This document shows positions 45,131 to 64,000 of a stretch of DNA of 64,000 nt, piece after piece; position 1 is the stretch's first letter; each line of letters starts with the position of its first letter. Location of the stretch: NCBI GenBank assembly GCA_958296055.1, contig CATQHS010000001.1:225917-289916 (forward strand), in the 5' to 3' direction. The notes under the pieces were generated by a model. That model ran no database searches. It saw only the letters and a program-made list of their open reading frames with translations, and was not told where the DNA came from. Origin of the DNA: an uncultured Acidimicrobiales bacterium (GTDB lineage Bacteria; Actinomycetota; Acidimicrobiia; Acidimicrobiales; Aldehydirespiratoraceae). The position numbers were made by a program, and so were the translations under genes.

Positions 45131-46189
<1,059 letters not shown>

Positions 46190-46324: not shown

Positions 46325-46474
46325 GCATCCCCCTGCGAACGGCCGATCTCGCCGGTCAGCCGTCGAGTGGCCAATAGGCTGGGAGGGCCGCCGGGCGGCG
46401 AGCGGCCGATCAAGGCGGGAAGCGATGCTCGGCGACTGACCGCAACCGACAGGAACCGAGCGAAGGCGGACATT

Positions 46475-46873: not shown

Positions 46874-46885
46874 CTCAGGCGCGAC

Positions 46886-47764: not shown

Positions 47765-47900
47765 GATTCTCTCGGTTTCTCTTTCTCTCGGCGGGTTCTC
47801 GTTCTCTTGGCAGTTCTCGACCGCCGTGGGCTTGTAGCGTGGGGTCGGCTCTCGGGGCGCTCCGAGACCCGAGAATAGGGGCCGATCAGGAGGGAGCGGC

Positions 47901-48476: not shown

Positions 48477-48485
48477 CCCGCTCGG

Positions 48486-48968
48486 TCAGCCGAGAGCGAA
48501 GCGCTCGACGGTCTCGTAGGCGCCTGAGGGCTCGACCCTCACCAAGGCAATCTCGGAGGCAGTGAACGACGCCTCGACCGCGGGCCCGTAGCCGGGCGGG
48601 GGTCTGCGGTTGAGCCGGGCCACGGTGAGGTGGCCAACGAAGGGCCGGTCCGGCGGCGGCTGGCCCAGGTGACCGGTGGCGGCGACCGCGGCGGCGGCCA
48701 GCCCCTCGGCCCCCCGGGCCGGGATCATCAGCACTCCCCGGCCAAGCCGCTCGACAGCCGGCCCCAGCGCCACGGCCGCCGCCGGGGCCCGCAGGCCCCT
48801 CAGCGCGCCCGCTGCCGCGTCCTCGTCGGCCTCGCCCAGGAACCGCAGCGTCACGTGAAGCCGGTCCGGGGCAGTCCAGCGAACCCCCGGCACGTCCGGG
48901 CGGGGCATCCGGGCCAGCGTCTCGATCACGTCAGCGGGCGGCCAGAGGGCCACGAACAGGCGGGGCAC
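48486..48968 (-). CDS. thpR: RNA 2',3'-cyclic phosphodiesterase (2H family, ThpR/LigT)
   Basis: Two HxT motifs (HVTLRF, HLTVAR) and LFVALWPP at the N-terminus. Trimmed to GTG 48968 because the upstream part of the track ORF is repeat-element sequence. Confidence 0.8.
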   Translation of the reverse strand: MPRLFVALWPPADVIETLARMPRPDVPGVRWTAPDRLHVTLRFLGEADEDAAAGALRGLRAPAAAVALGPAVERLGRGVLMIPARGAEGLAAAAVAATGHLGQPPPDRPFVGHLTVARLNRRPPPGYGPAVEASFTASEIALVRVEPSGAYETVERFALG

Positions 48969-49000
48969 GGCTCGACGGTATTGCCCCGAGGCCTGCGGGG

Positions 49001-49152
49001 CGTCCCGGCCGGCGGGTCCTGTCACGGCTGGCGGATTGCCCCAGCGGTTGGGTTGGTTGCGGGGCGTCCCGGCCGGCGGGTCCTGTCACGGGGGCGGTCG
49101 TCGCCGCAAGCGGCGCCGACGCTGACCCCCGTGCCACCCCCCGGCCTGGCGC
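49001..49152 (+). repeat. Palindromic repeat element, copy C (with duplicated GTCCCGGCCGGCGGGTCCTGTCACGG module)
   Basis: GTCCCGGCCGGCGGGTCCTGTCACGGGGGCGGTCGTCGCCGCAAGCGGCGCCGACGCTGACCCCCGTGCCACCCCCCGGCCTGGCGC. Confidence 0.85.
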
Positions 49153-49160
49153 GCTGCTCA

Positions 49161-49340
49161 CCAGTCAAGGACATTCACCGACGAGCGGTCAGCGGGGTCC
49201 CCGCGTGCTGACCCAGTCAAGCGACTGCTTGAAGCCAAGGACATTCACCGACGAGCGCTCGACGGGGTCCTCGCGTGCTGACCCAGTCAGGCGGCTGCTT
49301 GAGGCCAGGGGCATTCACCGACGAGTGGTCGCGGGAGGGG
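49161..49340. repeat. 70-bp x2.5 tandem repeat
   Basis: AAGGACATTCACCGACGAGCGGTC.GCGGGGTCC.CGCGTGCTGACCCAGTCA.GCG.CTGCTTGA.GCC units start at 49167, 49237 and 49307. Confidence 0.9.
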
Positions 49341-49364
49341 CTCGTGCCGTCCCGGCCGGGCTGG

Positions 49365-50897
49365 TCATGATCCGGCCCGAATCTTGGCCGGTGGTCTCGG
49401 GGCCGGGACGTAGCCCTGGACGCTGGCCCGGGTTCGGCTCGCAGGATCGCTCCTGTTGGAGAGAGCTACCGTTTCGACGCGGGAGTCACAGTTGTCCCGC
49501 AGGTTTCGGCCAGCGGGGTCGCTCCGGTTGGAGGGACTGCTTGAGCCAGCCGAGTCAAGGCTGGCGGGTTTTCGGGCGGTGCGGGTGGGCCGGGGCTGGT
49601 TGGGGGTGTGGGTGGCCCATTGGCCGTTGGGTGCTCGGGTGAGGGTGAGGTTGTGTTGGTGGATGTGGTGGTGGTGTCGGTTGCAGACCAGGGCGAGGTT
49701 GTCGATGTCGGTGGGGCCTTGGGCGGGGGCGGTCCAGGGGACGATGTGGTGGGCGTGGCAGTGGCTGGGGCTGGCCGCGCACAACACGCAGCCGCGGTCT
49801 CGGGCTATGAGCGTTCGCCATTGCTGGGGGGAGACGGTTCTGGTCTTGCGGCCGTGCCACAACGGCAGGCCGTCGCGGGAGAACAGGGCCCCGAACAGGT
49901 CGGCCTCGCAGGCCAGGCGCTCTAGTTCGGAGCGGGGGATGGGGCCGGTGCCGGGGATTTCGCAGCGGGCGTCGGGGTCGGCACCGGTGATGGCGTCAGT
50001 GTGGGCGATGACGAGGATCTGATTGCGCAGACTCGGGGGCTTGTCCCGGCCGGCGGGTCCTGTCACGGGGGCGGTCGTCGCCGCAAGCGGCGCCGACGCT
50101 GACCCCCGTGCCACCCCCCGACTTGGCGCACCGGGCTCCGGCCCGGGCTCTTGCTCGCCGAGCGTGTTGGCGCCGTTGTCGGGGTCTGGGGCGGGGGTGG
50201 GGGTTATTCCCAGGGCGGCGGTTAGGGCGTCGGCGTTGCGCTGGTCCCAGGTGCGGATCTGGTCGGGTTTGGCGTCTCGGCCGCCGTCGGCTCGATAGAG
50301 GCGGTTGGCGATGTCGTCGATTACGGCCCGGGCCTGGGCACCGGTGACGGGGTCCAAGCGGGTGCGGAAGTTGACCATGCCTTCGCCGTCGCACCAGGCC
50401 CGGTGGCTGCGCATGGCCCGCTGGCGGCGGAACTTGGCCTCACGGTCTGCCGCCGTTTGGTGACGGTGAGCCCAGTCGGCGACCTCCCGGCCGGCCAGAT
50501 CGGCGGGCAGCGCCTTTGCCTTCTCCAGCAGGCCCGCGTCGGTGTCCACCGTCTCGGCCGAGGTGGTCCGGGCGGCTTGCACCAAAGCGTCGGCGTGCTC
50601 GGCGGTGATATCGCCCTCGGCCAGGGCGCCGGCCACCGCAGGCATCTGGTCCAAAACCTCGGCCCGGCGCAGCCGCCGGCGAGCCTCGCGCTGAGAACAG
50701 CCCCCGACGTCACGCAACAACTCCATGCCCGCCGCCGGGTCGAAGGTCCGATCGGCGGCCGCAGTCAACAGGCGGGCCTCCAAAGCGTCCACCGCCGCCC
50801 GCACCCGCTTCGCTCCGGCCGCCGTCTCGTGCAACTCGGCCAGGCCCATGGTCGCCACATTCAAGGCGTTCAGTTGGGTGACGATCCGGTCGAACAC
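49365..50897 (-). CDS. HNH endonuclease with N-terminal DUF222 (REP13E12-type family)
   Basis: DUF222-like N-half and an HNH C-half (CHAHHIVPW...NLALVCNRHHHHIH). It carries repeat copy D in frame. Confidence 0.85.
   Translation of the reverse strand: MFDRIVTQLNALNVATMGLAELHETAAGAKRVRAAVDALEARLLTAAADRTFDPAAGMELLRDVGGCSQREARRRLRRAEVLDQMPAVAGALAEGDITAEHADALVQAARTTSAETVDTDAGLLEKAKALPADLAGREVADWAHRHQTAADREAKFRRQRAMRSHRAWCDGEGMVNFRTRLDPVTGAQARAVIDDIANRLYRADGGRDAKPDQIRTWDQRNADALTAALGITPTPAPDPDNGANTLGEQEPGPEPGAPSRGVARGSASAPLAATTAPVTGPAGRDKPPSLRNQILVIAHTDAITGADPDARCEIPGTGPIPRSELERLACEADLFGALFSRDGLPLWHGRKTRTVSPQQWRTLIARDRGCVLCAASPSHCHAHHIVPWTAPAQGPTDIDNLALVCNRHHHHIHQHNLTLTRAPNGQWATHTPNQPRPTRTARKPASLDSAGSSSPSNRSDPAGRNLRDNCDSRVETVALSNRSDPASRTRASVQGYVPAPRPPAKIRAGS
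50043..50131 (+). repeat. Palindromic repeat element, copy D (inside the HNH/DUF222 CDS)
   Basis: Nearly identical to copy C. It is translated in frame as ...SRGVARGSASAPLAATTAPVTGPAGRDKPP... Confidence 0.85.
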
Positions 50898-51093
50898 GAC
50901 GCACTCCTATCCAGCCGATCCCCGAAGGGACCGAAGTCGAATCTGAAACTGCGGCCAGCCGAAGCCGACGAATCACCAGTCCGGGGAAGTGCCAGAACCT
51001 CCGAACGGTTAGTTCAGGAAGTTCGGTGACCGGTAACGACAATGTATCAGAGCCCTGTGACACTCCCAACACCCGTTCGAAAAAACGAAACGA

Positions 51094-51891
51094 TTACAGG
51101 GGCAGAGACCGGCCCGCCTCGCGCAGACGGCGGCGGCGGTGCTGAGCGTCGGGCATGACGGCGGCCACGATCCGCCAGAACTCGGGCGAGTGGCTCCTGA
51201 CCGCCAGATGGGCCAGCTCGTGCACCACTATGTAATCGATCAGCGCCGGCTCGAGCATCACAGCCCGCCAGTTGAATCGCAGGGTGCCGTCGGGGGCGCA
51301 ACTCCCCCACCGCTGGCGCTGGTCGCGGATCAGCACCCGGGGAATGGGGCTCCGGCCCAACCGGGGCTGCCAGCGACCGACGCAGGCCGGCAGCCGCTCG
51401 CCAGCCCGGCCCCGATACCACCCCACCACAGCTCGGCGGACCCGCTCTCGGCGCTCGTCGCCTTCGAGGAACTGAGGCACGGCGATGCGGAAGCGCCAGT
51501 GGTCGAAGCGGACCTCCGGCGAGCGGACCCCGCCAACAGAAGGCTCGACGATCAGACGGACGTTGCGGCCCAGGTAGGGCAGCGTCTCGCCGCTGACGAA
51601 CCGCCGGGGCGTCGGGGCCAGGCTCGAAACCGATCCGGCCGCTCCCACGGCCCCGCCAGCCTCAGCCAGGCGGGCCAGTATCCACGCCGCCCGTTTCGTG
51701 ACGATGGCCCGCACCTCGGCACCAGATGTTGCTGACGGCGCGGCCACCTGCACTCCCCCGCCGTCCACGGTGATCTGGACCGTCTTGTGCCGCCGCGGGC
51801 TGCGGCGGATCTCGTACTCGATGGTGGTGGCGCCGAAACGGACGGAGTCCCGCTCAGCCACCGACCCGGCCGTCACCACTCGACCGGCCAC
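51094..51891 (-). CDS. M48-like zinc metallopeptidase, DUF45/YgjP family
   Basis: HELAHL zinc motif, WGSC, and the IEYEIRRSPRRHKTVQITV N-terminal pattern. It lies directly downstream of hsdR, a common arrangement. Confidence 0.8.
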   Translation of the reverse strand: MAGRVVTAGSVAERDSVRFGATTIEYEIRRSPRRHKTVQITVDGGGVQVAAPSATSGAEVRAIVTKRAAWILARLAEAGGAVGAAGSVSSLAPTPRRFVSGETLPYLGRNVRLIVEPSVGGVRSPEVRFDHWRFRIAVPQFLEGDERRERVRRAVVGWYRGRAGERLPACVGRWQPRLGRSPIPRVLIRDQRQRWGSCAPDGTLRFNWRAVMLEPALIDYIVVHELAHLAVRSHSPEFWRIVAAVMPDAQHRRRRLREAGRSLPL

Positions 51892-51963
51892 CCAGTTGCC
51901 GCCACCCGGCCGGTCACCCGGACCGCCCGTTCGCTCACCACCCGGCCGTCACCAGCCCGCTCC

Positions 51964-54900
51964 TCACCGGCTGCTTCTCCGGCGGGCCAGCTCCACCACC
52001 CGGCCAGCCAGCTCGTCCAACTGCTCCTCGGTGTGGGCGCCCGCGGGCCTGAGCTGGCGCTTGACGTCCCGGCGCATCTGGCGCTGGACCTCCAGGTTCG
52101 ACTGCCAGTCCACGACGGCGCGATGGCGCTCCACCGCCGACTCGATCCTCAGAGCGAACCGCTTGGCCTCCTCGTCAAGACGCACCCGGCCTCCAGACCC
52201 GGCCCCAGCCTCCCCCTCCGAGAGCCCGGCCTCCCCCGCTCCGGCCGAACCGGCCGAACCGGTCGAAGAAGGCCCCGGCTCCTCCAGTCGCCTGTCGAGC
52301 AGCTCGTAGACGGCGAAGGCCAGCGGCGACAGGCCGTGCTCGGCGGCGAAGTCGTCGAGGCGCAGGATCTGCTGGGCCACCGCGGCCAGGCGGTGACAGG
52401 CCTCGGCCGAGTCGATCAGCCGGTTGCGCAGGTCCTCGATGACCCGGGCGAGCTGGTCCGAGAGCCGCTCGAAGAACGCCGGGTTCTCGCCCAAGCGCTC
52501 GTGGATCTGAGCCCGGATGGCGTGTTCCATCACCGAGGCCCTGGCCTCGTCGCCGGGCAGGCTGGCGATCTTCCGCTCGAAGTCGGCGTCGAGGATGGAT
52601 ATCGGCTTCATCATCTCCCGCACCCGGGCGCTGATGCGCTCATCGATCAGCTTCTTGACCTTCGCCCCGATCTCGGTCCAGTCGGCGGCGGCGTCCTCGC
52701 GCAGGAACTGGGCCCGGACGCAGGCCCGTATCTCGGTGAGGCGAGCCAGCCGGTCCCGGTAGTCCAAGGCCCGGGGGTCGGGCAGGAAGCGGTCCATGAG
52801 GATCGAGAACTGGCGGTAGTCGGCGTTGAACCGCTCGAAGAGATCGACCTTGAAGGCACCGTCGGTGGAGGCGTCGGGGGCGAAGACGGCCACGCACGCC
52901 CACGTGTCGCCGAAGTCGCGACCCCCGAACCAGGACTCGGCCGCGGCGGCGGCCGACTCGATGACCTCGGCCGGGTCCTCTTCCATCTCCCACATGGCCC
53001 CCTGGACATCCGACTGGTCGAAGGCGGACAGCACCTCCTCCAAGTCGCGGGAGACGCCGCAGTAGTCCACCACCAAGCCGAAGGTCTTCTCGGTGGCCAC
53101 GCCATCGAACACGTGGGAGAACCGGCGGTTCACCCGGGCGATGGCCTGGAGCAGCCCGTGCTCCCGCAACCCTCGGTCGAGGTAGAGCACCTGCTCCACC
53201 GGGGCGTCGAACCCGGTGAGCAGCATGTCCACCACCACCAGCACCTCGGGGTCGCCCTCGGGATCGACGAAGGCCTCGGTGACCAGGCTCTGGTTCAGCT
53301 CACGGGCCGTATTGAACTCGCGCCCGTCTTGGGGGGTGGTGGTGATGATCGGGAAGGCGCTCACCCCGAAGTTGATCAGGTGACCGGCGTAGCGCACCGC
53401 CGCGGCCCGGCTGGGGGCCACCACCTGGGCCTTGAACCCGTTGGGACGCACCTTGGCCTTGAAGTGCTCGGCGATGTCGAAGGCGATCATCTCAATCCGG
53501 CGCTCGGCCTCGGCCACGGTCTCCTTGTTCCCGTAGCGGCGGCGCAGCCGGGCCCGCACCTCCTCGGGCTGGTCGCTGAACAGGGCATCGAAGAGCTGGT
53601 CGAGGGTGTCGGGGCCTTCGACGGCCAGATCGGGGAGCCGGGCCTCGTAATAGATGGGCACAGTCGCCCCGTCGGCCACCGACTGGGGGATGGTGTAGGA
53701 GTCGATGAGGGGCCCGAACCGGCGCATGGTGCTGCGCCGAAACCCCTTGTCGATGGGGGTGCCGGTGAAGCCGAGCAGCGTGGCGTTGGGCAGCGCTTTG
53801 GACATGCGGGCCCCGAGCGTGCCGTACTGGGTGCGGTGGGCCTCGTCCACCATGACGATCACGTTCTCGGAGGGGTCGAGCACGTCCAGTTCCCCCTCGG
53901 GCGCGGTCAGGGCCTCCTCGAACTTCTGCACCGTCGTCATCACCGTGCGGCCCGCGCCGGTGGTGAGCAGTAGGCGCAGGTCGCCGGTGCTCGACGCCCG
54001 CTCGGGGGCGGGGAAGCCGCAGCGCTGGAAGGTGGCGGTGATCTGACGGTCGAGCTGGGTCCGGTCGGTCACCATCACGATGGTCGGGTTGTCGAGGCCG
54101 GGCTGGCGGCGCAGCTTGCCGGCCAGCCACAACATGGTCAGCGACTTGCCGGAGCCCTGGGTATGCCACACCACGCCGCCCCGCTCGGCGGGGGTGCGGC
54201 CCCTCAGGACCCGCTCCAGGGCGGCCCCGACGGCCCGATGCTGGTGGTAGCGGGGCAGCTTCTTCACCACTTTGCCCTGCTCGGGCTCGTATACGACGTG
54301 GTCGCGCATAACGTCGAGCAGAACGACCGGGTCCAGCAGCCCGACGATGAGCCGGTTCTGGCCCTCGGGCTCGACCCCAAAGCGCTGCCGCACCTCGTCC
54401 TCGGAGTAGGGCAGCACCGACTTCCACCCGACATAGGCATTCTCCGGCGCGCCGAGCCCGGCGAAGACGGCGTCGGTCCCGCAGTGGGCCACGCTCATCA
54501 GATTCCAGGCGAACAACTCGGGCGCACCCCGGCCGTGCCATTCCGGCGACGACTCCTGATAGCGCCGGAGTTGGTTCACCGCCTTGGTCTTCCACCGGTC
54601 GTGCAGCGCCAGCGACTTGGCTTCCATAACCACCAGCGGTATGCCGTTGACGAACAGCACCAAGTCGGGGATGACGGACCGCTCGTCGTCGTCGGGATCA
54701 CCGCGCCCGCTGCCGCTGAGGACCCGGAACTGGGTGGTGACCACGAAATCGTTGAGGCCGCTGTGGGGGTGGTCGAAATCGAAGAAGCGGACCGTGCGGG
54801 TCCGCCGCCCCTTGGGGGTGTCGGTGTCGAGGGGCATCCCGTAGGTGAGGTATTCGTGGACAATCTGGTTGCGGGCCATCCCGACCGCGTCGACATGCCC

Positions 54901-55116
54901 AAGGTCGAAGATCACCCGCTCGGCCTGGCTCTCAGTCATCCACTCGTTGAGCCGCAGCAGCGCCCGCGTCAGCCGACCCCGGAGCAGCACATCCCGTTCG
55001 TCCCCGCGCTCAGCCGCCAGGGCGTCCCGGTGGACATACGTCCATCCCAGCTTCTCCAGCAGCCGCCGGGCTGGTCCCTCAGCGTGGTCGAACTCGTTGA
55101 GCTTGGTGGAAGTCAT
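51964..55116 (-). CDS. hsdR: Type I restriction endonuclease subunit R
   Basis: 1050 aa with an N-terminal nuclease region (PDLVLFVNGIPLVVMEAK), SF2 helicase motifs (TQGSGKS, DEAH, TGTP) and a C-terminal domain. Confidence 0.95.
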   Translation of the reverse strand: MTSTKLNEFDHAEGPARRLLEKLGWTYVHRDALAAERGDERDVLLRGRLTRALLRLNEWMTESQAERVIFDLGHVDAVGMARNQIVHEYLTYGMPLDTDTPKGRRTRTVRFFDFDHPHSGLNDFVVTTQFRVLSGSGRGDPDDDERSVIPDLVLFVNGIPLVVMEAKSLALHDRWKTKAVNQLRRYQESSPEWHGRGAPELFAWNLMSVAHCGTDAVFAGLGAPENAYVGWKSVLPYSEDEVRQRFGVEPEGQNRLIVGLLDPVVLLDVMRDHVVYEPEQGKVVKKLPRYHQHRAVGAALERVLRGRTPAERGGVVWHTQGSGKSLTMLWLAGKLRRQPGLDNPTIVMVTDRTQLDRQITATFQRCGFPAPERASSTGDLRLLLTTGAGRTVMTTVQKFEEALTAPEGELDVLDPSENVIVMVDEAHRTQYGTLGARMSKALPNATLLGFTGTPIDKGFRRSTMRRFGPLIDSYTIPQSVADGATVPIYYEARLPDLAVEGPDTLDQLFDALFSDQPEEVRARLRRRYGNKETVAEAERRIEMIAFDIAEHFKAKVRPNGFKAQVVAPSRAAAVRYAGHLINFGVSAFPIITTTPQDGREFNTARELNQSLVTEAFVDPEGDPEVLVVVDMLLTGFDAPVEQVLYLDRGLREHGLLQAIARVNRRFSHVFDGVATEKTFGLVVDYCGVSRDLEEVLSAFDQSDVQGAMWEMEEDPAEVIESAAAAAESWFGGRDFGDTWACVAVFAPDASTDGAFKVDLFERFNADYRQFSILMDRFLPDPRALDYRDRLARLTEIRACVRAQFLREDAAADWTEIGAKVKKLIDERISARVREMMKPISILDADFERKIASLPGDEARASVMEHAIRAQIHERLGENPAFFERLSDQLARVIEDLRNRLIDSAEACHRLAAVAQQILRLDDFAAEHGLSPLAFAVYELLDRRLEEPGPSSTGSAGSAGAGEAGLSEGEAGAGSGGRVRLDEEAKRFALRIESAVERHRAVVDWQSNLEVQRQMRRDVKRQLRPAGAHTEEQLDELAGRVVELARRRSSR

Positions 55117-55530
55117 GAGGCTTGGATCAATTCCAATTCGGGTATTCCTTGGAAATCTCGGTCAGGAAGCAAAGCGGACTATTCAACAAAAGTGCCGTTA
55201 GCAGCAATCCACGCGTCCGCTTATGCGGTCTAAAGCTTTGATACCTAGCTAAAGCGTCGGAGCTATCCGACCGAGTCGATAGAATTAATTCAACCTCAAG
55301 CGATCCAGAAGAAGATGAACACTGCCGAAGCCTACTTAAAATTTGCTTCCAATTCAAAGAGTCGCCCTTTTGAAAATTATGGCAAATCAGATCATAAATC
55401 ATTAGACAAACCGCTCTCTGAATATGACCGCAAGTTGTTTGTAAATCAACTACCCTGTCCATACTAAGGTAAGGTCCCTTCAAATACTACAAGTAACTGA
55501 CTGGTCATCATGCTCCTATCGTTGAAGTAT

Positions 55531-56448
55531 TTATATTACAGGCGTTTCAAAATCTCCAACCGTGTGCCAGTCCGTACCATCCAAGTTTACTGGACAACCA
55601 GCAGCTTGAAGACGTTGTGCCAATTCCTGACGTCGTTGGGAAGTATTGTCAAGTCTTACAGTATGACGACCCGCAATATCGCTAAAAGGTCTTAGGACAC
55701 CAAGTTCTACAAGTATAGTACGATCTTCTGATTGACCCATTGCCATTCCTGCTTCAAACAATACATTAGGGCGAGCTTGACCACTTAATTCTATCTCATA
55801 TGTCAGTTCATTTTTTGATCTAAGATTTTCTCGAAGACGAGCCTCATCATCCGGTGTGAAGAGAACCAAAATGGCATGCGCTTCACTAAAGGCTGCGGTT
55901 AAAATTTCCCAAATATGGGGGCTAACTTTACCAGTCAGTTTAATAGCTTCTATCCATTCTAGCGGTTGAAGATCTATAGCCCTTAGAAAGTTGAATAGTT
56001 CATCTCTAGCTGATATATTTCTACCGTGTATTACAAATATTTTTTGAGTATTTTTGGCTGGCATAGGCAACATATTATTAGAGTCATAACGATCAATTTC
56101 ATATCCGGGTGGACCCAAAATAAAATCATCAGTAACATCTTTACCTTCCTTAGCTATAATCCAATCTATAGACGGGCCTGGCAATACATTTGACCATCTG
56201 CTTTGCTTGATATTTTCAGCCAGCCCATAGTAATTCTTAGAAGACTCTTTGGTAGTACTTATCCACATTCTTTCAATATCATCTAGCTGAATCGTCTTTC
56301 CATTAACTACTATTGATTCTCCACGACGATAAGGGGTAAGAACGCGCTCATTTAATCTGCCCTCAGTTAGATCGAGTTTAACTTCACCGTAAGATCTACT
56401 AGATTTCAAGCTTATACAAATATGATAGTACTTCACAATTATCTCCAT
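55531..56448 (-). CDS. TIR-like domain protein (PF10137 / CAP12-PycTIR type) with uncharacterised ~135-aa N-terminal domain
   Basis: The C-terminal half matches the family pattern: IFVIHGRN, HAILVLFTPDDEA, QARPNVLFEAGMAMG (candidate catalytic Glu) and LRPFSDIAGRHTV. The gene is AT-rich. Its ATG lies 2 nt after the hsdS stop. Confidence 0.75.
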   Translation of the reverse strand: MEIIVKYYHICISLKSSRSYGEVKLDLTEGRLNERVLTPYRRGESIVVNGKTIQLDDIERMWISTTKESSKNYYGLAENIKQSRWSNVLPGPSIDWIIAKEGKDVTDDFILGPPGYEIDRYDSNNMLPMPAKNTQKIFVIHGRNISARDELFNFLRAIDLQPLEWIEAIKLTGKVSPHIWEILTAAFSEAHAILVLFTPDDEARLRENLRSKNELTYEIELSGQARPNVLFEAGMAMGQSEDRTILVELGVLRPFSDIAGRHTVRLDNTSQRRQELAQRLQAAGCPVNLDGTDWHTVGDFETPVI

Positions 56449-56450
56449 AA

Positions 56451-57704
56451 TCAGCGGATAATTCCGGGAAGTAGCTGGTTAAGTAAGGAAGTTTTGAGAG
56501 AAATTATTGCGTTCTGCTCCTGTTTCATCCATACCAATGACTCTAAGATTGTACCAATTACTGACGTAATAATCTGCTGTTCCGGCAGAGTTGGGAGAGG
56601 AATTGGTAGAGTTGAATACTCCGAAGCATTAATGTTTGGTTGAGCGCCGACTCGTTTCATTGATGCAATCCAACGGCGATAATAACTCGAATGCGTGTAT
56701 AATGATACGAATTCTGGAAGTGCAATTTCAGGGTTGGGACGAAACCGAATCAGATAACCTGCATATACACAATGACCATCTTCAGATTGATAAAGGTACG
56801 TTCTCCCTACACTACCACTTCTAGCAAATAATAGATCACCCATACGCAGCTTATGCTCTGAATCATTTGATATCTTTACAGATCTAATTCCCTCAGTACG
56901 TAACCGTCCATCACCAGTTATGTCAGTGATCCGAACATATCGTGGTAAGATTGGGTCGAACGGACATGCTCGTAATCCAACACCGTATTTAGGTGGATCA
57001 CATATTTCTCCCAAGCTGACAACTTGCCAGTCCGCTGGAATAGTTCCTATACTCTGATATGTTCGCCGTTCGGTGTGCCAACCGGGGACACCACAAGTGA
57101 ATAGTGCATGTAGCATAGCATTCCGTAAATTCTTGGTGGCAATTATAACTGCTTCAGAGTGTCGAATAGCTTCGTCAATTGAATCCAATACGATTGCAAT
57201 ACTTGCTTGTTCTGAGAGTGGCGGAAGTAGTACCATACTTCTCTTCAAATGTGCGCTAGTAATAGAAGGTACAGCACTTACATTAGCTAACTGGGCTAGA
57301 TCAATAGATTCAAACCAAGCGTGAAGGAACCTTGTATCACACTTTTGGGTATCTGATACTGTAACGCCTATCATGTTATTATCGATAATAGTGGGCACCG
57401 TTAATGCTCTCTTCTTGTTGGTAGCTATAGCAGCCCCTACCTTGGGAAATACAATTGTACCAGGCGCAAAGACAGTTGCTTTGAGTTCTTCCACATCTTT
57501 CTCATCAACATAGTTGTTTGCGTATTGAATGTAAGTTTCGTTACCTTGCAGAGTCATATCAGAAACCTTGATGAATGGATACTCGCCACTACGTCGCCCC
57601 TGTCTGTTCATCGGGAATCCAGTACCATTTCGTACTTTTGCTACGTCTCCGATGCGCATAATCTGCCAACCATCGGGCACGGTTTCTATAGTTGGTCCAA
57701 CCAT
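56451..57704 (-). CDS. hsdS: Type I R-M specificity subunit (full length, two target-recognition domains)
   Basis: 417 aa with two TRDs separated by conserved helices (PPLSEQASIAIVLDSIDEAI and LPEQQIITSVIGTILESL). Very AT-rich relative to its surroundings. Confidence 0.9.
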   Translation of the reverse strand: MVGPTIETVPDGWQIMRIGDVAKVRNGTGFPMNRQGRRSGEYPFIKVSDMTLQGNETYIQYANNYVDEKDVEELKATVFAPGTIVFPKVGAAIATNKKRALTVPTIIDNNMIGVTVSDTQKCDTRFLHAWFESIDLAQLANVSAVPSITSAHLKRSMVLLPPLSEQASIAIVLDSIDEAIRHSEAVIIATKNLRNAMLHALFTCGVPGWHTERRTYQSIGTIPADWQVVSLGEICDPPKYGVGLRACPFDPILPRYVRITDITGDGRLRTEGIRSVKISNDSEHKLRMGDLLFARSGSVGRTYLYQSEDGHCVYAGYLIRFRPNPEIALPEFVSLYTHSSYYRRWIASMKRVGAQPNINASEYSTLPIPLPTLPEQQIITSVIGTILESLVWMKQEQNAIISLKTSLLNQLLPGIIR

Positions 57705-57710
57705 CTGATC

Positions 57711-59252
57711 TCACTCCTGGTCTCTGGAGAAGCCCATATTGGTCAGAAGCGCGTCCATCTTCGATACTGCTTCGTCTCGACGGTGCTCCGCCTCCCGTAA
57801 CTGGGCTAGAGCATCCTCGACGCTTAGCACCTCCACTGGTTCGGTTGTGTCAACGTAGCGGCTGATGTTCAGATTGAAACCGTTGTCGGCTATCTCCTCC
57901 AAATCAACTACATGCGCGAACCGCTCTGCCTCTTCGAAGGTCTGATACGCCTCGACGATCTTGGCGATGTGTTCGCGGTCTAGGAAGTTCTGCGCCTTGT
58001 CCTGGCGGAAGCATCCATCCTGGGCAGCGTTCACGAACAGCACCTTGCCCCGGCGGTCCGCCGGCTTGGCCCGGTTCAGCACGCAGATGGTCACCGGGAT
58101 GCTGGAACCGAAGAACAGGTTAGGGGCTAGGCCGATGATCGCCTCAAACAGATCGGCTTCCAAGATACCTTCGCGGATCTTGCCCTCGGCACCGCCGCGG
58201 AACAAGATGCCGTGGGGCATCACCACGCCCACCATGCCCTTGGAATTCGTCACCGCCAGCATGTGCATCAGGAAGGCGAGGTCGCCCTTGGTGCGGGGGG
58301 GGATGGCGCCATAGCGGTCAAAGCGGTGGTGGGGATCGTTAGGGGCGAAGTCGTGGCCCCAGTTCTTCAGGCTGAACGGCGGATTGGCGATCACCCGGTC
58401 ATAGGAGAGAAGCCGGTCCGTGGCCGGGTCCACCAGGCGCGGTTCGGCAATCACATCGCCAGCCTCCAGGCGGGCGGCCCGCAGGTCGTGCAGCAACAGA
58501 TTGAGTTTGCCCGCGGCCAGCGTACCCAGGTTGCGCTCTTGGCCGTGCAGCGCCAGGTTGCGGCGGTCGCCGCCCTGCTCGTGTACATATTGCGCGGTGT
58601 AGATGAGCATCCCGCCGGACCCGGCCGTGGGATCGCAGATCCGCATCCCCTCACGGGGCTGCAACAGTTCGACGATGAGACGAACCACCGAGCGGGGCGT
58701 GTAGAACTCCCCGCCCTTCTTGCCAGCGTCGTCGGCGAACTGGTTGATCAAGTACTCGTAGGCATCGCCCAGCACGTTGCCGGCACCGTCCCCGCCGTCG
58801 CTCAGATTGTCATCGCGCAGGTTCAGGGCGCTGAAGTGGGTGAGCAGGCTGCGGATGATGCGCTCCCGGTTGGCCGGGCTGCCCAGCTTCGACTCATCGT
58901 TCCAGTTGGTGCCCGACAGCACACCGTCGAGCCTCGGAGCGTTGGCCGTCTCCACTTCGTGGCCAGCGATGTTGAGGGCGTCGCCGGGGTTCCTCGGGGC
59001 TCCGGCCAGCACGGACCAGCGACCCGACTCGGGGACGAAAAACTCGTGCTCGTCGGGGTCCGACAACGCCACCTCGCGGGGGACGCCGGAGGCCACCGCG
59101 CTCTCCACCTCCTCGTCGAACCGGTCCGAGAGCCGCTTCAGGAAAAGGATGGAGAAGATGTAGTTCTTGTAGTCGGCCGCGTCGATCTGGCCGCGCAGGA
59201 TGTCGGCGGCTTGCCAAAGCTTCGACTGGAGCTCCTGGCTGGTGAGCGGCAC
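57711..59252 (-). CDS. hsdM: Type I R-M DNA methyltransferase subunit M
   Basis: HsdM N-terminal domain (LWQAADILRGQIDAADYKNYIFSILFLKRLSD), motif I DPTAGSGGML and motif IV NPPF. Confidence 0.95.
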   Translation of the reverse strand: MPLTSQELQSKLWQAADILRGQIDAADYKNYIFSILFLKRLSDRFDEEVESAVASGVPREVALSDPDEHEFFVPESGRWSVLAGAPRNPGDALNIAGHEVETANAPRLDGVLSGTNWNDESKLGSPANRERIIRSLLTHFSALNLRDDNLSDGGDGAGNVLGDAYEYLINQFADDAGKKGGEFYTPRSVVRLIVELLQPREGMRICDPTAGSGGMLIYTAQYVHEQGGDRRNLALHGQERNLGTLAAGKLNLLLHDLRAARLEAGDVIAEPRLVDPATDRLLSYDRVIANPPFSLKNWGHDFAPNDPHHRFDRYGAIPPRTKGDLAFLMHMLAVTNSKGMVGVVMPHGILFRGGAEGKIREGILEADLFEAIIGLAPNLFFGSSIPVTICVLNRAKPADRRGKVLFVNAAQDGCFRQDKAQNFLDREHIAKIVEAYQTFEEAERFAHVVDLEEIADNGFNLNISRYVDTTEPVEVLSVEDALAQLREAEHRRDEAVSKMDALLTNMGFSRDQE

Positions 59253-59255
59253 GTT

Positions 59256-59870
59256 TCAACCTCGGGTTTCTTGCAGGGCCTTGTAGCCGATTTCGTGGAT
59301 GAGTGAGTCGCGAAGCACCTCACGCCGGAGCTGGGCGGCCTTGACCGCAGCCCCGTACGCCGCCTCCGATGCCTCCACCAACTCCGCCGCTAGATGCAGC
59401 TCGCGGGCGGAAGGCATCGGAACCTCAACCTCTCGGAGGCTATTAGCCGATAGCGACGTGATGGTGGAACTCACCGTCAGCCGCCGGGCCAACTGGGCCC
59501 GCCCGTGGGCCGAGGAGAGGAACCACCAGAGCCAGTGCCCCAGGCCCGAGTCCGGGCGCTTCGGCCGGACCACCAGCAGCGTCACCCCAGCCACCGTCCT
59601 GGACACGCCCGGCGGCACCAGCGCAACCTTGGTTGAGTCGGCCCGGGCCGTCACCAGCACATCGTGGGGCCGGAGCAGGTGGCGCTCGGTGCGGACGTTG
59701 CGGTCGACCTCGATTTCCCGGAGGCCGTCGAGATTGAGCCAGCCGCCGCCTTCCGGCAGGTTGCTGCTCTCCACCAGTCGCAGCGCCCACTCCCCCGCCC
59801 GAGCCCCGGCCCCGCGCCCCGCCCGACCCAGCCCCTGGTAGACATCCGCCACGTCAGCCACCTGGTTCAT
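59256..59870 (-). CDS. hsdS: Half-size Type I specificity subunit (single TRD plus conserved helix)
   Basis: 204 aa and GC-rich, with HsdS-like architecture (one TRD, then PMPSARELHLAAELVEASEAAYGAAVKAAQLRREVL). It ends 3 nt before the hsdM start. Confidence 0.7.
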   Translation of the reverse strand: MNQVADVADVYQGLGRAGRGAGARAGEWALRLVESSNLPEGGGWLNLDGLREIEVDRNVRTERHLLRPHDVLVTARADSTKVALVPPGVSRTVAGVTLLVVRPKRPDSGLGHWLWWFLSSAHGRAQLARRLTVSSTITSLSANSLREVEVPMPSARELHLAAELVEASEAAYGAAVKAAQLRREVLRDSLIHEIGYKALQETRG

Positions 59871-60028
59871 TACGATGACCTTACAGTGCGATCATAAAAA
59901 AATCAACACTTAGAAGTGCTAGTTAGTGCACGGTCCACCTTCAGGTCTATCAGGCGAGGTAAGCTGTGCCGTTGGCGATCTCAACTGTGGAGATCCAAAC
60001 GAATCATCATCAAAAAGGAGCATTTTCA

Positions 60029-61009
60029 ATGGCTGACCTGATTGTCCAGTTCGCCAAGGCAAAGTCAAACGTAGAAGCGTCGGAGGAAGACAAATCCAAT
60101 GCCGCGGAAGCTCATAAGGCTGTGCGCGCCTGCCTCGAACATGAAGAAACGTTGAGATCCTACGGTATTGACACGGTACTAATTGGCAGTTACAAACGCC
60201 ATGTGGCCATCCGTCAAGTCAAAGATGTAGATGTGTTGTCCAAGCTTCCCCAGTTACCAGCCGATGTAGAGCCAAGAACGCTTTTGGACTATTTCTTAAA
60301 AGTCCTGAAGAACGCCTATGGGTCTGATCGAGTAGAGGCTCAGAGTCGTTCGGTCAAGATTGAGTTCCCTGACTTTGACCTTGCAGTGGATGTAGTACCT
60401 GCTCGTCCTTGCCAAAGTTCTAACTACATTGAGATTCCTGATCGCGTTGAAGGCTGGCAGGAGACTAACCCAGAACGGCTTACAGAGCTAACAACAGCGA
60501 TGAACAACTCTTACGACGACGAGTACGTACCATTAGTCAAGCTGATTCGTCAGACGCGTCGACACAATCTCAACAAGCGTCCAGGTGGTTTTTACTTTGA
60601 AATCCTCACGTATCATGCAGCAGCCAATGGTCTAGACCGTAGAAGCACTGGTGCGCTTTTTACTTCCGCCTTACGCGACATCGCAGAACAGCTCAGATTA
60701 GCTGCCGCGGGCCATGAAGTGCAAGATCCGACGATGCCAGGTGCTAGTATTTCAATTCGAGTCACCGATGTTCAAATGCAAACAGCCGTAACAAAGTTTA
60801 CTGACCTCGCATCCAAGGCTGAAGCGGCCCTTGAGGCTGATATTTGTCCGGCAGCAAAAGCATTTCAAAAGATCTTCGGCCGCAACGACGATAACGAATT
60901 GGTCTTTGAAATGCCAGCAGCATGCAATGAGGACGGAACCTCTAAGTCTCTGATCGCCATCTCACCTGGAGATCGCACCATCCCAGCAGGCAATCGCCGT
61001 TTCGCATGA
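60029..61009 (+). CDS. CBASS cGAS/DncV-like nucleotidyltransferase (CD-NTase, SMODS domain)
   Basis: Pol-beta NTase motifs GSYKRHVAI...VKDVDVL and the third acidic residue in FDLAVDVVPA. RBS AAAAGGAG lies upstream of ATG 60029. There is a 4-nt overlap with cap2. The C-terminus ends ...RRFA. Confidence 0.8.
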   Translation: MADLIVQFAKAKSNVEASEEDKSNAAEAHKAVRACLEHEETLRSYGIDTVLIGSYKRHVAIRQVKDVDVLSKLPQLPADVEPRTLLDYFLKVLKNAYGSDRVEAQSRSVKIEFPDFDLAVDVVPARPCQSSNYIEIPDRVEGWQETNPERLTELTTAMNNSYDDEYVPLVKLIRQTRRHNLNKRPGGFYFEILTYHAAANGLDRRSTGALFTSALRDIAEQLRLAAAGHEVQDPTMPGASISIRVTDVQMQTAVTKFTDLASKAEAALEADICPAAKAFQKIFGRNDDNELVFEMPAACNEDGTSKSLIAISPGDRTIPAGNRRFA

Positions 61010-62490
61010 TGAGTATCCTGAGCGACAGTGTAGCAGCGGAGCGTGAGGCTTTCATTGAAGGACTCTGCACTCGTGGGTTCAAATTACTTAATGACTGTCG
61101 AACTCTCCTGGGTGCTATCAACATTAACGGGCAACCCATAGAGCATGAAATCGCCCTTACCGCAGAGTTTCCCATTACAAAGCCTCGGGTATCAGTCCCA
61201 AATGGGGAGGGTAGCCTATCTTGGCACAGGGAGTCTGATGGAACTTTATGTTTATGGTCTGATGACGAGGCATCTGATCTTCCATGGAGCGACGCTGCTG
61301 CCATGATTGATCGTATCTCTCAATGGCACGCCAAGGATGCCGCAGGCTGGTCGAATGATCCTCCCGATCTCGACTTGGAAAGGTATTGGACATCCGGCTG
61401 TAATCCTATATTAGTAGTTCACCCAGATCTCGAACCTCTCACTGGCAAAAAGTGCAGAGCCAGAAAATATCTAAAGAAGTCATTCGAGGTGTGGGATGTT
61501 GGGCCAGGAAAAGTCTACAAGAACCGTAAACGTTGGGCAGGAGTATCCGTAGTCAACGCGGGAGAGTTGAAGCAGCCCGTCCGTAATTTTGATGAACTCG
61601 CGGATCGGCTCGGAGCCGAAGAGTCTGAGGAGCTAAGTGCTGCAATTGAAAACGGCGATGTCAGTGTAGTGGTGGTACGCTATCGCAGACAAGAACACGA
61701 AGCAGCCGTGAGCCTTATCGCAGAAGATCAAAATCCTAATCGCCTCACGGCTGTTAGAACTGCTCACACGGGCGAGTCAACCTTACGCCTACGAGCCGGA
61801 CTAGACGCCAACGTGCTTGCAAATAAGAGGATCGCACTAGTCGGGCTCGGGGCGGTCGGATCTCTGTTGGCAGAGATGCTCGTCCGTTCAGGTGTGGGCG
61901 CGATGACACTCATAGACGGCGATATTATTAGACCTGGTAATTGTATTAGGCATGTAGCCACTTTAAACGATGTTGGTATCAATAAAGCTGAAGTCGTCAA
62001 AGATAAGATCATAACCGCGGGACTGATTTCCAAGGAGGACGCTAATGGCAAGCTCACGGTACAGCCCCAGATGTTACAAGACGCAGTAACCACTGAAAAG
62101 ATCTTCAACGAACATGACCTTATTATTGACGCCACTGGTGACAATCCAGTAACGGCGTTGGTATGTACCGCTAGCCGGATTTTAAACAGGCCCTTGATCA
62201 CGGTCTGCTTACAACGAGGGGGAACAGTCGCACGCGTTGACCGCTTTCCGCTGCTCCACGGCGAAACCCACAAAGACGCACTACCTCCGGCTGAATCCCA
62301 TATCGAGCTTCGTGAGGGGGGGTGCGGAGACCCTATATCCCCTGCACCGCCATGGGCCTGTGCGGCTGCCGCAGCCCGAGCCGCGGGAATGGCAGCCGAT
62401 CTGCTCGTTGGACGTGATCTGTACCCTCCAACCGTCATCGACGAGTTGATCAAGTTGCCAGATAGCTTGCCAACGGCAAGCAGTCTGTGA
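61006..62490 (+). CDS. cap2: CBASS Cap2 (fused E2-like and E1/ThiF-like ubiquitin-transferase-like enzyme)
   Basis: N-terminal E2-like Cys context (HRESDGTLCLW). The ThiF Rossmann motif is LVGLGAVGSLLAEMLVRSGVGAMTLIDGD. The C-terminal Cys region is GGCGDPISP. Confidence 0.8.
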   Translation: MMSILSDSVAAEREAFIEGLCTRGFKLLNDCRTLLGAININGQPIEHEIALTAEFPITKPRVSVPNGEGSLSWHRESDGTLCLWSDDEASDLPWSDAAAMIDRISQWHAKDAAGWSNDPPDLDLERYWTSGCNPILVVHPDLEPLTGKKCRARKYLKKSFEVWDVGPGKVYKNRKRWAGVSVVNAGELKQPVRNFDELADRLGAEESEELSAAIENGDVSVVVVRYRRQEHEAAVSLIAEDQNPNRLTAVRTAHTGESTLRLRAGLDANVLANKRIALVGLGAVGSLLAEMLVRSGVGAMTLIDGDIIRPGNCIRHVATLNDVGINKAEVVKDKIITAGLISKEDANGKLTVQPQMLQDAVTTEKIFNEHDLIIDATGDNPVTALVCTASRILNRPLITVCLQRGGTVARVDRFPLLHGETHKDALPPAESHIELREGGCGDPISPAPPWACAAAAARAAGMAADLLVGRDLYPPTVIDELIKLPDSLPTASSL

Positions 62491-62978
62491 TGAAGTACCA
62501 AACCCGTCAAATCGTCGTGGAGCCCTCTAGCTGGTTGGAAGCTACAACAACAGCTTCACAAACTAAGTTAGAAATTGGTGGCATCTTGGCGGGCTGGCGT
62601 CATGACACAGGTATTTATATATCGAAATTTGTCGAAGTGCCAGACATGCGCGCGACTCGGGCCACCTACCTGCGACGACATGCATTCGCCTCTGAACGCT
62701 TAAAGAGTCTAGTCGAAACTCTGCCGGAAGGTTCACCAGTCGGTTATGTCGGTGAGTGGCACACCCATCCAGAGAATCAAGGTCCTAGCCGAACCGACCG
62801 TAACCAACTAAAGCGTATTTCAAAGAAAGTTAAAGGGGATATAGCTCTCATCGTACTCGTTTATGATCAGAATACTGGCCAATGGATGCCCGCAGGGATG
62901 TGTGCTAACTCTGGCGTAGTGCATACAGCCGTCATCAGGATCGATAACTCATTGGCAATGCAGATAAAATCAGTATAA
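62487..62978 (+). CDS. cap3: CBASS Cap3 (JAB/JAMM isopeptidase)
   Basis: JAMM motif EIGG...GEWHTHPENQGPSRTD (HxH-x7-S-xx-D), overlapping the cap2 stop. Confidence 0.8.
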   Translation: MMKYQTRQIVVEPSSWLEATTTASQTKLEIGGILAGWRHDTGIYISKFVEVPDMRATRATYLRRHAFASERLKSLVETLPEGSPVGYVGEWHTHPENQGPSRTDRNQLKRISKKVKGDIALIVLVYDQNTGQWMPAGMCANSGVVHTAVIRIDNSLAMQIKSV

Positions 62979-62992
62979 TCTATGTAATCCAT

Positions 62993-64000
62993 ATGACCGA
63001 TATCTCTAGCCATAGTCAAAGCGCTTCGCGGATTGCGGGCGACTACTATCAACACCTCATTGCCTGGAATGAAGCACTTGAAGCCCTGCGATCAGACAAC
63101 GATGTACTCGCTGTTACTGTTGAGCATCCAGATGCTGGAAACGTAGACGACATCGTTGTGCACAGGCGCACCGGTTCAACCCTCTTCATTCAAGTCAAAC
63201 ATGCAGTAGATGCCAGAACACCTGTTGGATACAAATGGTTACTCGGTTTAAGATCTTCAAACTCCAGAGCAACAAGCCTCCTGCAAAAATTCTATAGAAG
63301 TTGGATTCATCTTTCAAAATCGGACGAACGCCCCGAACTCCGGCTTATAACAGACCGAGAAATTGATCCTAATGACCCGGTTATGAGCCGAATTGATCGC
63401 ATGACAGGTTTACTAGTGCCTAATATCCGCCACGGCCGTGCGGCCGAAGGCCGAGCCCAATGGGCACAACACTTAGAAATTGACGAATGTGAACTCTTAG
63501 AATTTCTAGAGAATCTACGATTTGAGACCGGTCGACCAGTGAGAGCAGAAGAGCAACGCGCCAGGACGCTGATGTGGGCTATGGGTTTTAACAACGACCA
63601 ACGGGCTATAGACGCAGCTATCGGATTAGTGAGAGAGTGGGTTCTGCTAAGAGAGCGCCAACTCCAACCCGATATACTTCATAATTGGGCACGAAACCAC
63701 ATCGGACAGCAAACCGACCAAGGTGCAGTTGTCATCATAGATGCTATCGATTATGACCCTCACCCGGAAGACGCCGATGAACACATCTGCTTCGTTGACG
63801 ACTATCTAGGAAACGAGGCTTCCGAGAGGCGACAACTTCGCGACCCAACCCAATGGGACCGAATTGGTCAAGAGATTACACAAGCCTCAGATAGATTGCG
63901 CAATCGCGGCGTACGGCGTGTCATAGCCCGTGGAGCAATGCGCTTACCAGCCTGGTTTACTGTTGGCGCAGCTTTTCGCCATGTTCGTGGCTTTGAGATA
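62993..64000 (+). CDS. CBASS effector, Cap4-like (DUF4297 PD-(D/E)xK nuclease N-domain; probable SAVED sensor domain begins near window end); 3' end outside the window
   Basis: Absent from the ORF track because no stop occurs before the window end. The frame is open from ATG 62993 for 336 codons. The sequence MTDISSHSQSASRIAGDYYQHLIAWNEALEAL...VTVEHPDAGNVDDIVVH...LFIQVKH resembles the DUF4297 nuclease motif. Confidence 0.65.
   Translation, partial: MTDISSHSQSASRIAGDYYQHLIAWNEALEALRSDNDVLAVTVEHPDAGNVDDIVVHRRTGSTLFIQVKHAVDARTPVGYKWLLGLRSSNSRATSLLQKFYRSWIHLSKSDERPELRLITDREIDPNDPVMSRIDRMTGLLVPNIRHGRAAEGRAQWAQHLEIDECELLEFLENLRFETGRPVRAEEQRARTLMWAMGFNNDQRAIDAAIGLVREWVLLRERQLQPDILHNWARNHIGQQTDQGAVVIIDAIDYDPHPEDADEHICFVDDYLGNEASERRQLRDPTQWDRIGQEITQASDRLRNRGVRRVIARGAMRLPAWFTVGAAFRHVRGFEI

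Follow-up and report, generated by a model that had tools for sequence, protein, structure and literature searches.

The window analysed here, a stretch of 64,000 nucleotides from an uncultured Acidimicrobiales bacterium (contig CATQHS010000001.1), carries at positions 60029–64000 four co-directional and tightly coupled open reading frames (ORFs) on the + strand, which very probably form a canonical type II CBASS (a defence against phages that signals through cyclic oligonucleotides), that is, an abortive-infection operon of the CdnD-Cap2-Cap3-Cap4 kind. The first gene (60029–61009) encodes a clade D-like CD-NTase of 326 residues. The second (61006–62490) encodes Cap2, an E2-E1 fusion of 494 residues, or 493 if the start is the ATG at 61009. 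The third (62487–62978) encodes Cap3, a JAMM/JAB isopeptidase of 163 residues from GTG 62487 or 162 residues from ATG 62490. The fourth, a Cap4-type effector, runs in the same direction from ATG 62993, 14 nucleotides after the cap3 stop, and its first 336 codons extend to position 64000, where the frame is still open at the end of the window. A first-pass annotation, made from the nucleotide letters and their translations, had proposed these four identities, and all of them hold on the evidence of family profiles and catalytic motifs. The start/stop overlaps that it listed, ATGA at 61006–61009 and GTGATG at 62487–62492, can be read directly.

The start of the first gene is preceded by a ribosome-binding site, AAGGAG (60015–60020, + strand, read from the sequence), 8 nucleotides before ATG 60029. 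Close CD-NTase homologues are 325–330 residues long and begin with MA(D/E)L, and an identical database protein (P0001) has 326 residues. An upstream start at GTG 59966, giving a 347-residue ORF, was considered and rejected, because both the ribosome-binding site and the homologue lengths favour ATG 60029. The database copy of Cap2 (P0243) has 493 residues, which corresponds to a start at ATG 61009, so that the overlap between the CD-NTase and Cap2 genes may be one nucleotide instead of four.

The CD-NTase matches Pfam SMODS (3e-19, 70.2 bits against a cutoff of 26.5), and is matched end to end by the PADLOC cyclase profile PDLC00810 (4e-119). The catalytic set GS...DVDV...D, predicted in the first pass, is found as the XGSX motif I52-G53-S54-Y55, followed by D66-V-D68-V and D121, with T146 at the Lid 1 position and L151 at the Lid 2 position. 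An alignment of 38 homologues with 51–78% identity shows no variation at G53, S54, D66, D68 or D121. The predicted catalytic residues line up with the GS and DVD motifs of BcCdnD, the cyclase of a Bacillus cereus type II CBASS, and no failure to align was seen.

The C-terminal tail of the cyclase is IPAGNRRFA, ending in R324-F325-A326, three residues that are likewise invariant in the 38-sequence alignment. Cyclases from operons with full Cap2 and Cap3 have a C-terminal glycine or alanine, which is thioesterified and conjugated (PMC10097602), and the terminal alanine fits this rule. The first pass had noted that a small C-terminal residue is compatible with Cap2-mediated conjugation. The B. 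cereus cyclase has the tail ...KPGGFA, and immunity is lost in its A331E mutant (PMC11153139). An alanine-terminated tail is present in 111 of 122 cyclase homologues, with the consensus (I/V)PAGDxRFA. Seven of the 122 (P0005, P0009, P0028, P0030, P0032, P0035 and P0037) extend past ...RFA by exactly one residue (L, R or Q). This resembles ubiquitin-like precursors, and by analogy such tails would need trimming before Cap2 could adenylate the terminal alanine, with Cap3 perhaps acting as the trimmer.

The clade of the cyclase was called by ranking its family profile against all PDB chains. The top five distinct enzymes are all CdnD: BcCdnD (9sa4, 1e-36), then the CdnD enzymes of Pseudomonas aeruginosa (9e-25), Enterobacter cloacae (2e-22) and Salmonella enterica (7e-21), and CdnD 9ntn (2e-11). 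Lower in the ranking come CdnE (1e-8), CdnC (1e-6) and 7ljn (0.04), and DncV was not found by the profile among the PDB chains. The CD-NTase clade, which had been described as unassigned, is therefore largely resolved as D-like in so far as the profile ranking indicates. The published active-site motifs of clade D are PDVDI and LDL (PMC13424991). The window cyclase has KDVDV at 65–69 and AVDVV around D121, so that the acidic residues are kept and their neighbours differ.

The nucleotide product is harder to predict. Two specificity positions have been proposed for clades C and D, the first of XGSX and one in Lid 2: a pair of Ser/Thr and His would give cyclic tri-AMP (cA3), and a pair of Asn/Gln and Gln would give cyclic AMP-AMP-GMP (cAAG) (PMC13424991). 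The corresponding residues here, from the alignment with BcCdnD, are Ile52 and Leu151, which is neither published pair. Our best guess, with about an even chance of being correct, is a cyclic trinucleotide such as 3'3'3'-cA3, because the side chains that could bond guanine are absent, the receptor is of Cap4 type, and the closest solved relative, BcCdnD, makes 3'3'3'-cA3. Since the residue pair falls outside both rules, the product of this enzyme would be an informative data point for sequence-based product prediction.

In Cap2, a linker joins an E2-like domain at the N-terminus to a ThiF/E1 adenylation domain, with the ATP loop G280-L-G-A-V-G-S286, at the C-terminus. The protein matches Pfam ThiF (1.6e-17, 63.9 bits against a cutoff of 28.1) and, over residues 3–482, the PADLOC E1-E2 profile PDLC00844 (4e-127). 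Pfam Prok-E2_B gives a sub-threshold match (0.005) to residues 36–131. AlphaFold2 was used to predict the structure from a 61-sequence alignment. The model is confident (predicted local distance difference test score, pLDDT, 93; predicted template modelling score, pTM, 0.86), and its best PDB match in Foldseek is E. cloacae Cap2 (7to3_A, E 1.7e-21, 565 columns), over the full length. Among 61 homologues with 31–75% identity, the only invariant cysteines are C82 and C440. C82 lies inside the E2 region, and C440 lies about 160 residues past the ATP loop, as does C548 in E. cloacae Cap2 (EcCap2). This is the pattern that a Cap2 requires, and C82 is a candidate for the catalytic cysteine of E2 and C440 for the crossover-loop cysteine of E1.

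Cap3 matches Pfam Prok-JAB (4.4e-9, 36.7 bits against a cutoff of 25), and its JAMM motif is intact, with E29 (in LEIGG), H92-T-H94 and S101-R-T-D104. It is matched by PADLOC JAB models down to 7e-16 and by the JAB parts of JAB-TIR-SAVED fusions (3e-24). The NCBIfam Cap3 equivalog gives 1e-8 and 35.6 bits, below its cutoff of 200. The JAB peptidase 9ild in PDB aligns with Cap3 across E..GG and EWHTHPE.

The effector fragment is matched by PADLOC SAVED_PDDEXK (PDLC02005, 2.8e-95, profile positions 1–336 of 483), and also by the Endonuclease effector profile PDLC00741 (8e-93) and by LmuA (3.5e-12). It comprises a DUF4297/PD-(D/E)xK-like nuclease domain, with D52-D53 and Q67-V-K69, then a helical linker and the beginning of a SAVED sensor. 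When Pfam matches up to E ≤ 10 are admitted, two sub-threshold models appear: Cap4_nuclease (0.021, 15.4 bits against a cutoff of 26.2) and SAVED on residues 245–310 (E 0.032, 14.4 bits), which covers only the first part of that domain.

The rest of the effector can be judged from related loci, which are given L numbers here. Orthologous effectors are 67–79% identical to the fragment, have 481–484 residues and contain a Pfam SAVED domain. The full-length protein is found in five relatives (L001, L002, L004, L006 and L008), with L090 as a sixth. The L001 effector has 484 residues, is 67% identical in a gap-free alignment, contains SAVED over residues 299–482 (1e-28) and matches the Cap4 structure 7yib. 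A profile made from nine orthologues matches 7yib at 6e-28, with both parts of the protein aligned. In the nuclease part, profile residues 15–233 fall on residues 11–245 of 7yib (i-E 2.4e-6), with the DD and QxK/QIK motifs in register. In the SAVED part, profile residues 320–468 match 7yib, and the SAVED parts of 6vm5 and 6vm6 are matched too. The expectation that a DUF4297-type nuclease continues into SAVED is thus supported through the orthologues, the SAVED end itself lying outside the window.

Other Acidimicrobiia (L001 and L008/L009) also have this operon of four genes, as do 34 further metagenomic loci. Against three syntenic orthologues the ratio of nonsynonymous to synonymous substitution rates (dN/dS) is 0.09–0.15 for all four genes, and 0.10–0.12 for the cyclase. 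The four genes are therefore maintained by purifying selection. This selection is shown by the data, and so are the genes present, their domain architecture, the residues of the active sites and of the tail, and the conserved synteny. A functional type II CBASS is supported by the family profiles, the catalytic motifs, the ...RFA C-terminus and the dN/dS near 0.1.

Several points weigh against this reading. The last ~148 residues of the effector, with most of SAVED, lie beyond the window, and an intact effector is inferred from the orthologues. By itself the effector fragment matches no Pfam family at E ≤ 0.01, the models being below their thresholds, and it has no sequence match in the PDB either. 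Single-sequence and profile HMMER alignments to EcCap2 span only the adenylation core (about residues 250–385), which leaves C82 and C440 unmatched to C109 and C548. Finally, the product call is weak, because Ile52 and Leu151 match neither the cA3 nor the cAAG pair. The operon had been described as complete. This is what the full-length effectors of the relatives suggest, the window itself not containing the last part of the gene. An inactive or decaying operon, for example a relic with its effector disrupted just past the window, would be compatible with the unseen 3' third of the effector gene and with the ENA gene calls for L002, L004 and L006, which are without cap3. However, the Logan assemblies L003, L005, L007 and L091, which are independent, do have a cap3 call, each of the three complete ORFs has the full length of its homologues, the effector frame is open over all 336 codons and free of gaps against the 484-residue orthologue, the catalytic residues are intact, and the dN/dS of every one of the four genes, including cap3, is about 0.1. 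We therefore regard decay as improbable. More improbable still, to the point that we give it almost no weight, is a different E1/E2/JAB conjugation system, either ubiquitin-like tagging of the Bil/Bub type or 6A-MBL. The NCBIfam 6A-MBL cap2_3 model does match the E1 and JAB regions (3e-28 and 2e-11), PADLOC BilC matches Cap3 (2e-4), and Foldseek finds BubCD (E ~3e-13). However, the 6A-MBL score is 98.7 bits against a curated cutoff of 320, the matches are confined to the common E1 and JAB cores, and the CD-NTase and SAVED effector that define CBASS are present (4e-119 to 3e-95). Bil/Bub and 6A-MBL were rejected on gene content, there being no ubiquitin-like (Ubl) or MBL gene, and Cap2 and Cap3 being separate genes. 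Type III CBASS was likewise rejected, since there are no HORMA or TRIP13 genes in or beside the operon and the regulators are Cap2 and Cap3.

A mechanism for the CBASS operon can be drawn from homology to the E. cloacae, Vibrio cholerae and B. cereus systems, from which we infer every biochemical step. Cap2 would adenylate the C-terminal Ala326 of the cyclase, which would then move via thioesters on the E1 cysteine (probably C440) and the E2 cysteine (probably C82) of Cap2, and be ligated to lysines of cellular targets, leaving it primed or more active. Cap3, as a JAMM enzyme, would undo the conjugation and so restrain the system. On phage infection the clade D cyclase is expected to make a cyclic oligonucleotide, most likely a trinucleotide such as 3'3'3'-cA3. 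This signal would be bound by the SAVED domain of the Cap4-type effector, switching on the N-terminal PD-(D/E)xK-like nuclease, which would degrade DNA and so stop phage production.

The closest characterised systems are the CdnD-Cap2-Cap3-Cap4 type II CBASS of B. cereus and E. cloacae. The B. cereus system (Kruger et al. 2024, PMC11153139; structures 9SA4/9SA5/9SAX, PMC13424991) has the same four components, including a Cap4 nuclease-SAVED effector, and of the solved cyclases BcCdnD is the closest (3e-21 by phmmer, 1e-36 with the family profile); its product, in a system with Cap2, Cap3 and Cap4, is 3'3'3'-cA3 (PMC13424991). Both cyclase tails end in ...FA, and the terminal alanine is essential in B. 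cereus. The B. cereus Cap2 is also short, with catalytic cysteines C91 and C403, compared to about C109 and C548 in E. cloacae. The similarity to BcCdnD is nevertheless distant (alignment over residues 7–285, 3e-21). The specificity residues are Ile52/Leu151 here and Ser51/His155 there, and the motif is KDVDV here and PDVDI there. The B. cereus host is a Firmicute, whereas the present one belongs to the Acidimicrobiia, and the conjugation target in Bacillus is PspA.

The E. cloacae CdnD02-Cap2-Cap3-Cap4 system (PDB 7TO3/7TQD, 7LJL, 7YIB; Ledvina et al., 10.1101/2022.03.31.486616; Jenson et al., PMC10097602) is likewise of type II, with a clade D cyclase ending in alanine, an E2-linker-E1 Cap2 and a Cap4 effector. 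EcCap2 is longer (600 residues, compared to 494 here) and only 17% identical, and the E. cloacae cyclase, of about 380 residues, makes 3'3'3'-cAAG by means of Asn/Gln specificity residues that are absent here. The second-closest solved cyclase, P. aeruginosa CdnD (6P82/6P8J/6P8U), is also of clade D and makes cA3, but it belongs to a type III CBASS with HORMA and TRIP13 regulation and a NucC effector, in place of the Cap2 and Cap3 found here. As a CBASS operon the locus adds little: its architecture, regulation and effector type are well characterised, and the family is already in the PADLOC profiles. It does add uncultured Acidimicrobiia to the range of type II CBASS with a clade D cyclase.

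The unusual trait of this otherwise ordinary member of type II CBASS is that it is AT-rich at the same site in several related and very GC-rich bacteria. The operon is a discrete 4.4-kb cassette beside a type I restriction-modification (R-M) unit, and has a guanine-cytosine (GC) content of 50.5%, compared to 71.0% for window positions 1–51000, which bears out the strongly deviant composition noted in the first pass. The GC content falls by about 20 points exactly at the operon boundaries. GC at third codon positions (GC3) is 0.44–0.50 in the CBASS genes, 0.27–0.34 in hsdS and the neighbouring TIR gene, and 0.84–0.92 in hsdR, hsdM, a half-hsdS and ygjP, so that GC3 follows conservation across the locus. 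Along the window ygjP comes first, then hsdR, the cargo gene, which is variable, hsdS, hsdM and half-hsdS, and after these the divergent CBASS operon. In relatives the downstream genes are a gene for 286 or 287 residues, a GNAT-like gene, and then cinA (L004 and L090) and pgsA (L090).

The same low-GC cassette is found at the same site in four PANK22-1 metagenome scaffolds from uncultured Acidimicrobiia in ENA (L002, L004, L006 and L090), with cyclases 76–78% identical to that of the window and CBASS proteins 66–79% identical overall. These scaffolds share the gene order, the R-M neighbour and a cassette GC content of ~49–51%, and the junctions are confirmed on the Logan assemblies L003, L005, L007 and L091. 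All have a common GC mosaic: hsdR ~70%, cargo gene plus hsdS 38–46%, hsdM ~67%, CBASS 49–51%, and ~70% beyond. The genomes differ in the cargo gene between hsdS and hsdR, and in the amount of divergence. Flank genes have 85–90% DNA identity between the window and the four scaffolds (10–14% divergence by the scaffold comparison) with a synonymous divergence (dS) of 0.25–0.45, while CBASS genes have 71–77% (23–29% divergence) with a dS of 1.15–1.95. In every pair of which the window is a member, the flanks are about 89–90% identical. Among the four scaffolds the CBASS genes are 84–93% identical, except for the cap2 of L002 (10978–12453), which is 73–78% identical to those of L004, L006 and L090, whereas its cyclase, cap3 and cap4 are 85–90% identical. 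The divergent L002 cap2 looks like a sign of recombination inside the operon. The divergence is thus incongruent between flanks, CBASS genes and L002 cap2, and therefore points to allele exchange within the cassette and not only to a faster clock.

A metagenome scan with the family alignment gave 80 loci, which were used for GC comparison only; the same kind of scan with the single protein found no relative, and a scan of genome contigs returned L001 as the only one. At 36 other loci of the family the operon GC is within -0.08 to +0.04 of the flanks, and only the window group departs strongly from this range. Outside this group, the 30 closest relatives have an amino-acid composition of the high-GC type. 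The GC contents at the three codon positions of the cassette are 60.7/43.7/47.1, compared to 69/50/76 in L001 and L008. These values were compared with a codon-position regression whose constants are reportedly those of Lawrence and Ochman, and appear to fit near-complete equilibration to a regime of ~50% GC, without the excess at third positions that would be the signature of amelioration toward 71%.

How the cassette came by this composition can be explained in more than one way. The first-pass annotation called it foreign, which holds for the composition; a simple recent import fits poorly with four related genomes that share the site and with nearest protein relatives in high-GC Acidimicrobiia. 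A recent and unameliorated horizontal import from a mid-GC donor or mobile element would account for the sharp 20-point drop at the boundaries and for the outlying GC among the 36 other family loci, and mid-GC hosts do exist, since a distant family member (L084) is in a host of 45% GC. Against it, L002, L004, L006 and L090 share not only the cassette and its site but the whole GC mosaic, the dS is 1.15–1.95 in the cassette and 0.25–0.45 in the flanks, and neither the amino-acid composition of the closest outside relatives nor the codon-position GC carries the mark of an import still in amelioration. No integrase was found, the window has no tRNA genes, no att-like repeat consistently flanks the cassette in L002, L004 and L090, which were searched for one, and a viral-contig scan with the family alignment found no relative and hence no evidence for a phage vector. 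Because the cassette and site are shared and the cassette dS is high, a single recent event cannot explain the composition, and we consider recent import unlikely.

Alternatively, the cassette, like the neighbouring block of hsdS and cargo gene, may be a long-term resident and hypervariable, with a pool of diverged alleles circulating in this lineage of Acidimicrobiia at one hotspot and swapped via the conserved flanks. Its AT-richness would then reflect either escape from a GC-biasing force such as GC-biased gene conversion, or selection, for example Lsr2-type silencing of a toxic operon. This fits the synteny and GC mosaic common to five genomes, the incongruence between flank and CBASS divergence, the way in which GC follows conservation, and the near-equilibrium composition for a ~50% GC regime. 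On the other side, the comparison covered only five genomes, and a single metagenome project supplied four of them; genes with GC3 of ~0.9 have constrained synonymous rates, so that the contrast in dS is partly an effect of rate; and an unsampled mid-GC donor pool is possible. We put the chance that a resident cassette is the right explanation at about evens. Two accounts thus remain, repeated replacement from an unsampled mid-GC pool and long-term maintenance of AT-rich alleles, and we lean towards the second.

A more specific and rather doubtful suggestion is that AT-richness is a maintained property of a hypervariable defence hotspot and not the scar of a recent transfer, with two swappable low-GC cassettes in the recA-cinA interval. 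There are indeed two low-GC blocks in this interval, the CBASS operon and hsdS plus the cargo gene, set in a frame that is high-GC and conserved, and the alleles of the cassettes have diverged past synonymous saturation and are all still at 40–50% GC. If the suggestion is true, the cassettes either escape a GC-biasing force, such as biased gene conversion, or their AT-richness is selected, for instance through Lsr2-type silencing of a self-toxic operon. Base composition is known to differ between accessory and core genomes (PMC5303225), and in actinobacteria Lsr2-like silencers are known to bind where the GC content drops (PMC7002338, 10.1101/751156). With defence cassettes 20–30 GC points below the genome across several diverged strains at one hotspot, the locus is a clean example from nature, and could be used to tell apart escape from biased gene conversion, silencing-related selection and repeated import as the cause of the composition.

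The surrounding DNA is core chromosome, with dapE, dapD, hflX, dapF, recA and others. The nearest named RecA sequences are from metagenome-assembled genomes of Acidimicrobiaceae/Acidimicrobiales, at 85–90% identity, and the description of the host as a high-GC actinobacterial backbone therefore holds at the level of the class Acidimicrobiia. An island, to which 45131–64000 of the window belongs, lies between recA and, in relatives, cinA (L004 and L090) and pgsA (L090). It contains a luciferase-like gene, an HD gene, DUF222, ygjP, the type I R-M unit with its cargo, and CBASS. This recA-cinA island is best described as a chromosomal defence hotspot in a core region. Further variable content in relatives includes an AAA_15 and DUF4276 pair and RelB/YafQ, and there is an ISL3 transposase in the unrelated context of L008. 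The DUF222 protein (49365–50897, - strand, 1.3e-23), which L004 and L006 also have in conserved form, lies at the island's left edge. DUF222 is the '13E12' repeat family, which is associated with HNH and is common in Actinobacteria.

The type I R-M unit is entirely on the - strand and consists of HsdR (51964–55116), a TIR protein (55531–56448), a full-length low-GC HsdS (56451–57704), HsdM (57711–59252) and, upstream of hsdM, a high-GC half HsdS of 204 residues with one target-recognition domain (59256–59870). The half HsdS matches the PADLOC Type I specificity subunit (5e-10) and is 82–84% identical in relatives. CBASS does adjoin the R-M/TIR unit, as the first pass had pointed out, but this is hotspot co-location and not functional fusion, because the adjacency is absent in L001 and L008. 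The TIR protein is of the CAP12/Pycsar type (Pfam PF10137, 9e-25) and corresponds to the PADLOC candidate system PDC-S35. Its gene sits between hsdS and hsdR, a position that is occupied by PrrC in the prr locus of E. coli. The same cargo slot contains a TIR homologue in L004 (56% amino-acid identity), a TIR-domain protein in L090, a 559-residue protein without a family match in L002, and a 311-residue PDC-M14A-like protein in L006. Cargo gene and hsdS form one block of 39–46% GC, and HsdS is only ~30% identical between genomes. From the TIR stop to the hsdR start there is a spacer of 414 nucleotides (55117–55530, ~44% GC), in which the only ORF listed, of 118 residues from a TTG start (55127–55483, - strand), is unconvincing.

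In the intergenic region upstream of the operon, a -10-like TANNNT hexamer, TAAGCT (59960–59965, + strand), lies ~64 nucleotides upstream of the CD-NTase start. The hexamer is in the same column at all four aligned loci, as TAAGCT, TAAAAT, TAAGAT and TATGAT, and is a candidate promoter element on the strength of this conservation alone. A scan with the sigma-70 consensus gave no promoter at TAAGCT, and its counts of promoters and terminators were no higher than in shuffled controls. Rfam, at its gathering threshold, gave no match in 50000–64000. The palindrome CACTT-AG-AAGTG (CACTTAGAAGTG, 59907–59918) also lies here, where the half-hsdS/hsdM and CBASS operons diverge. In the aligned intergenic sequences its core, CACTT..AGTG, is conserved for L004 and L006 and in part for L002, and the palindrome may be an operator common to the R-M and CBASS promoters.

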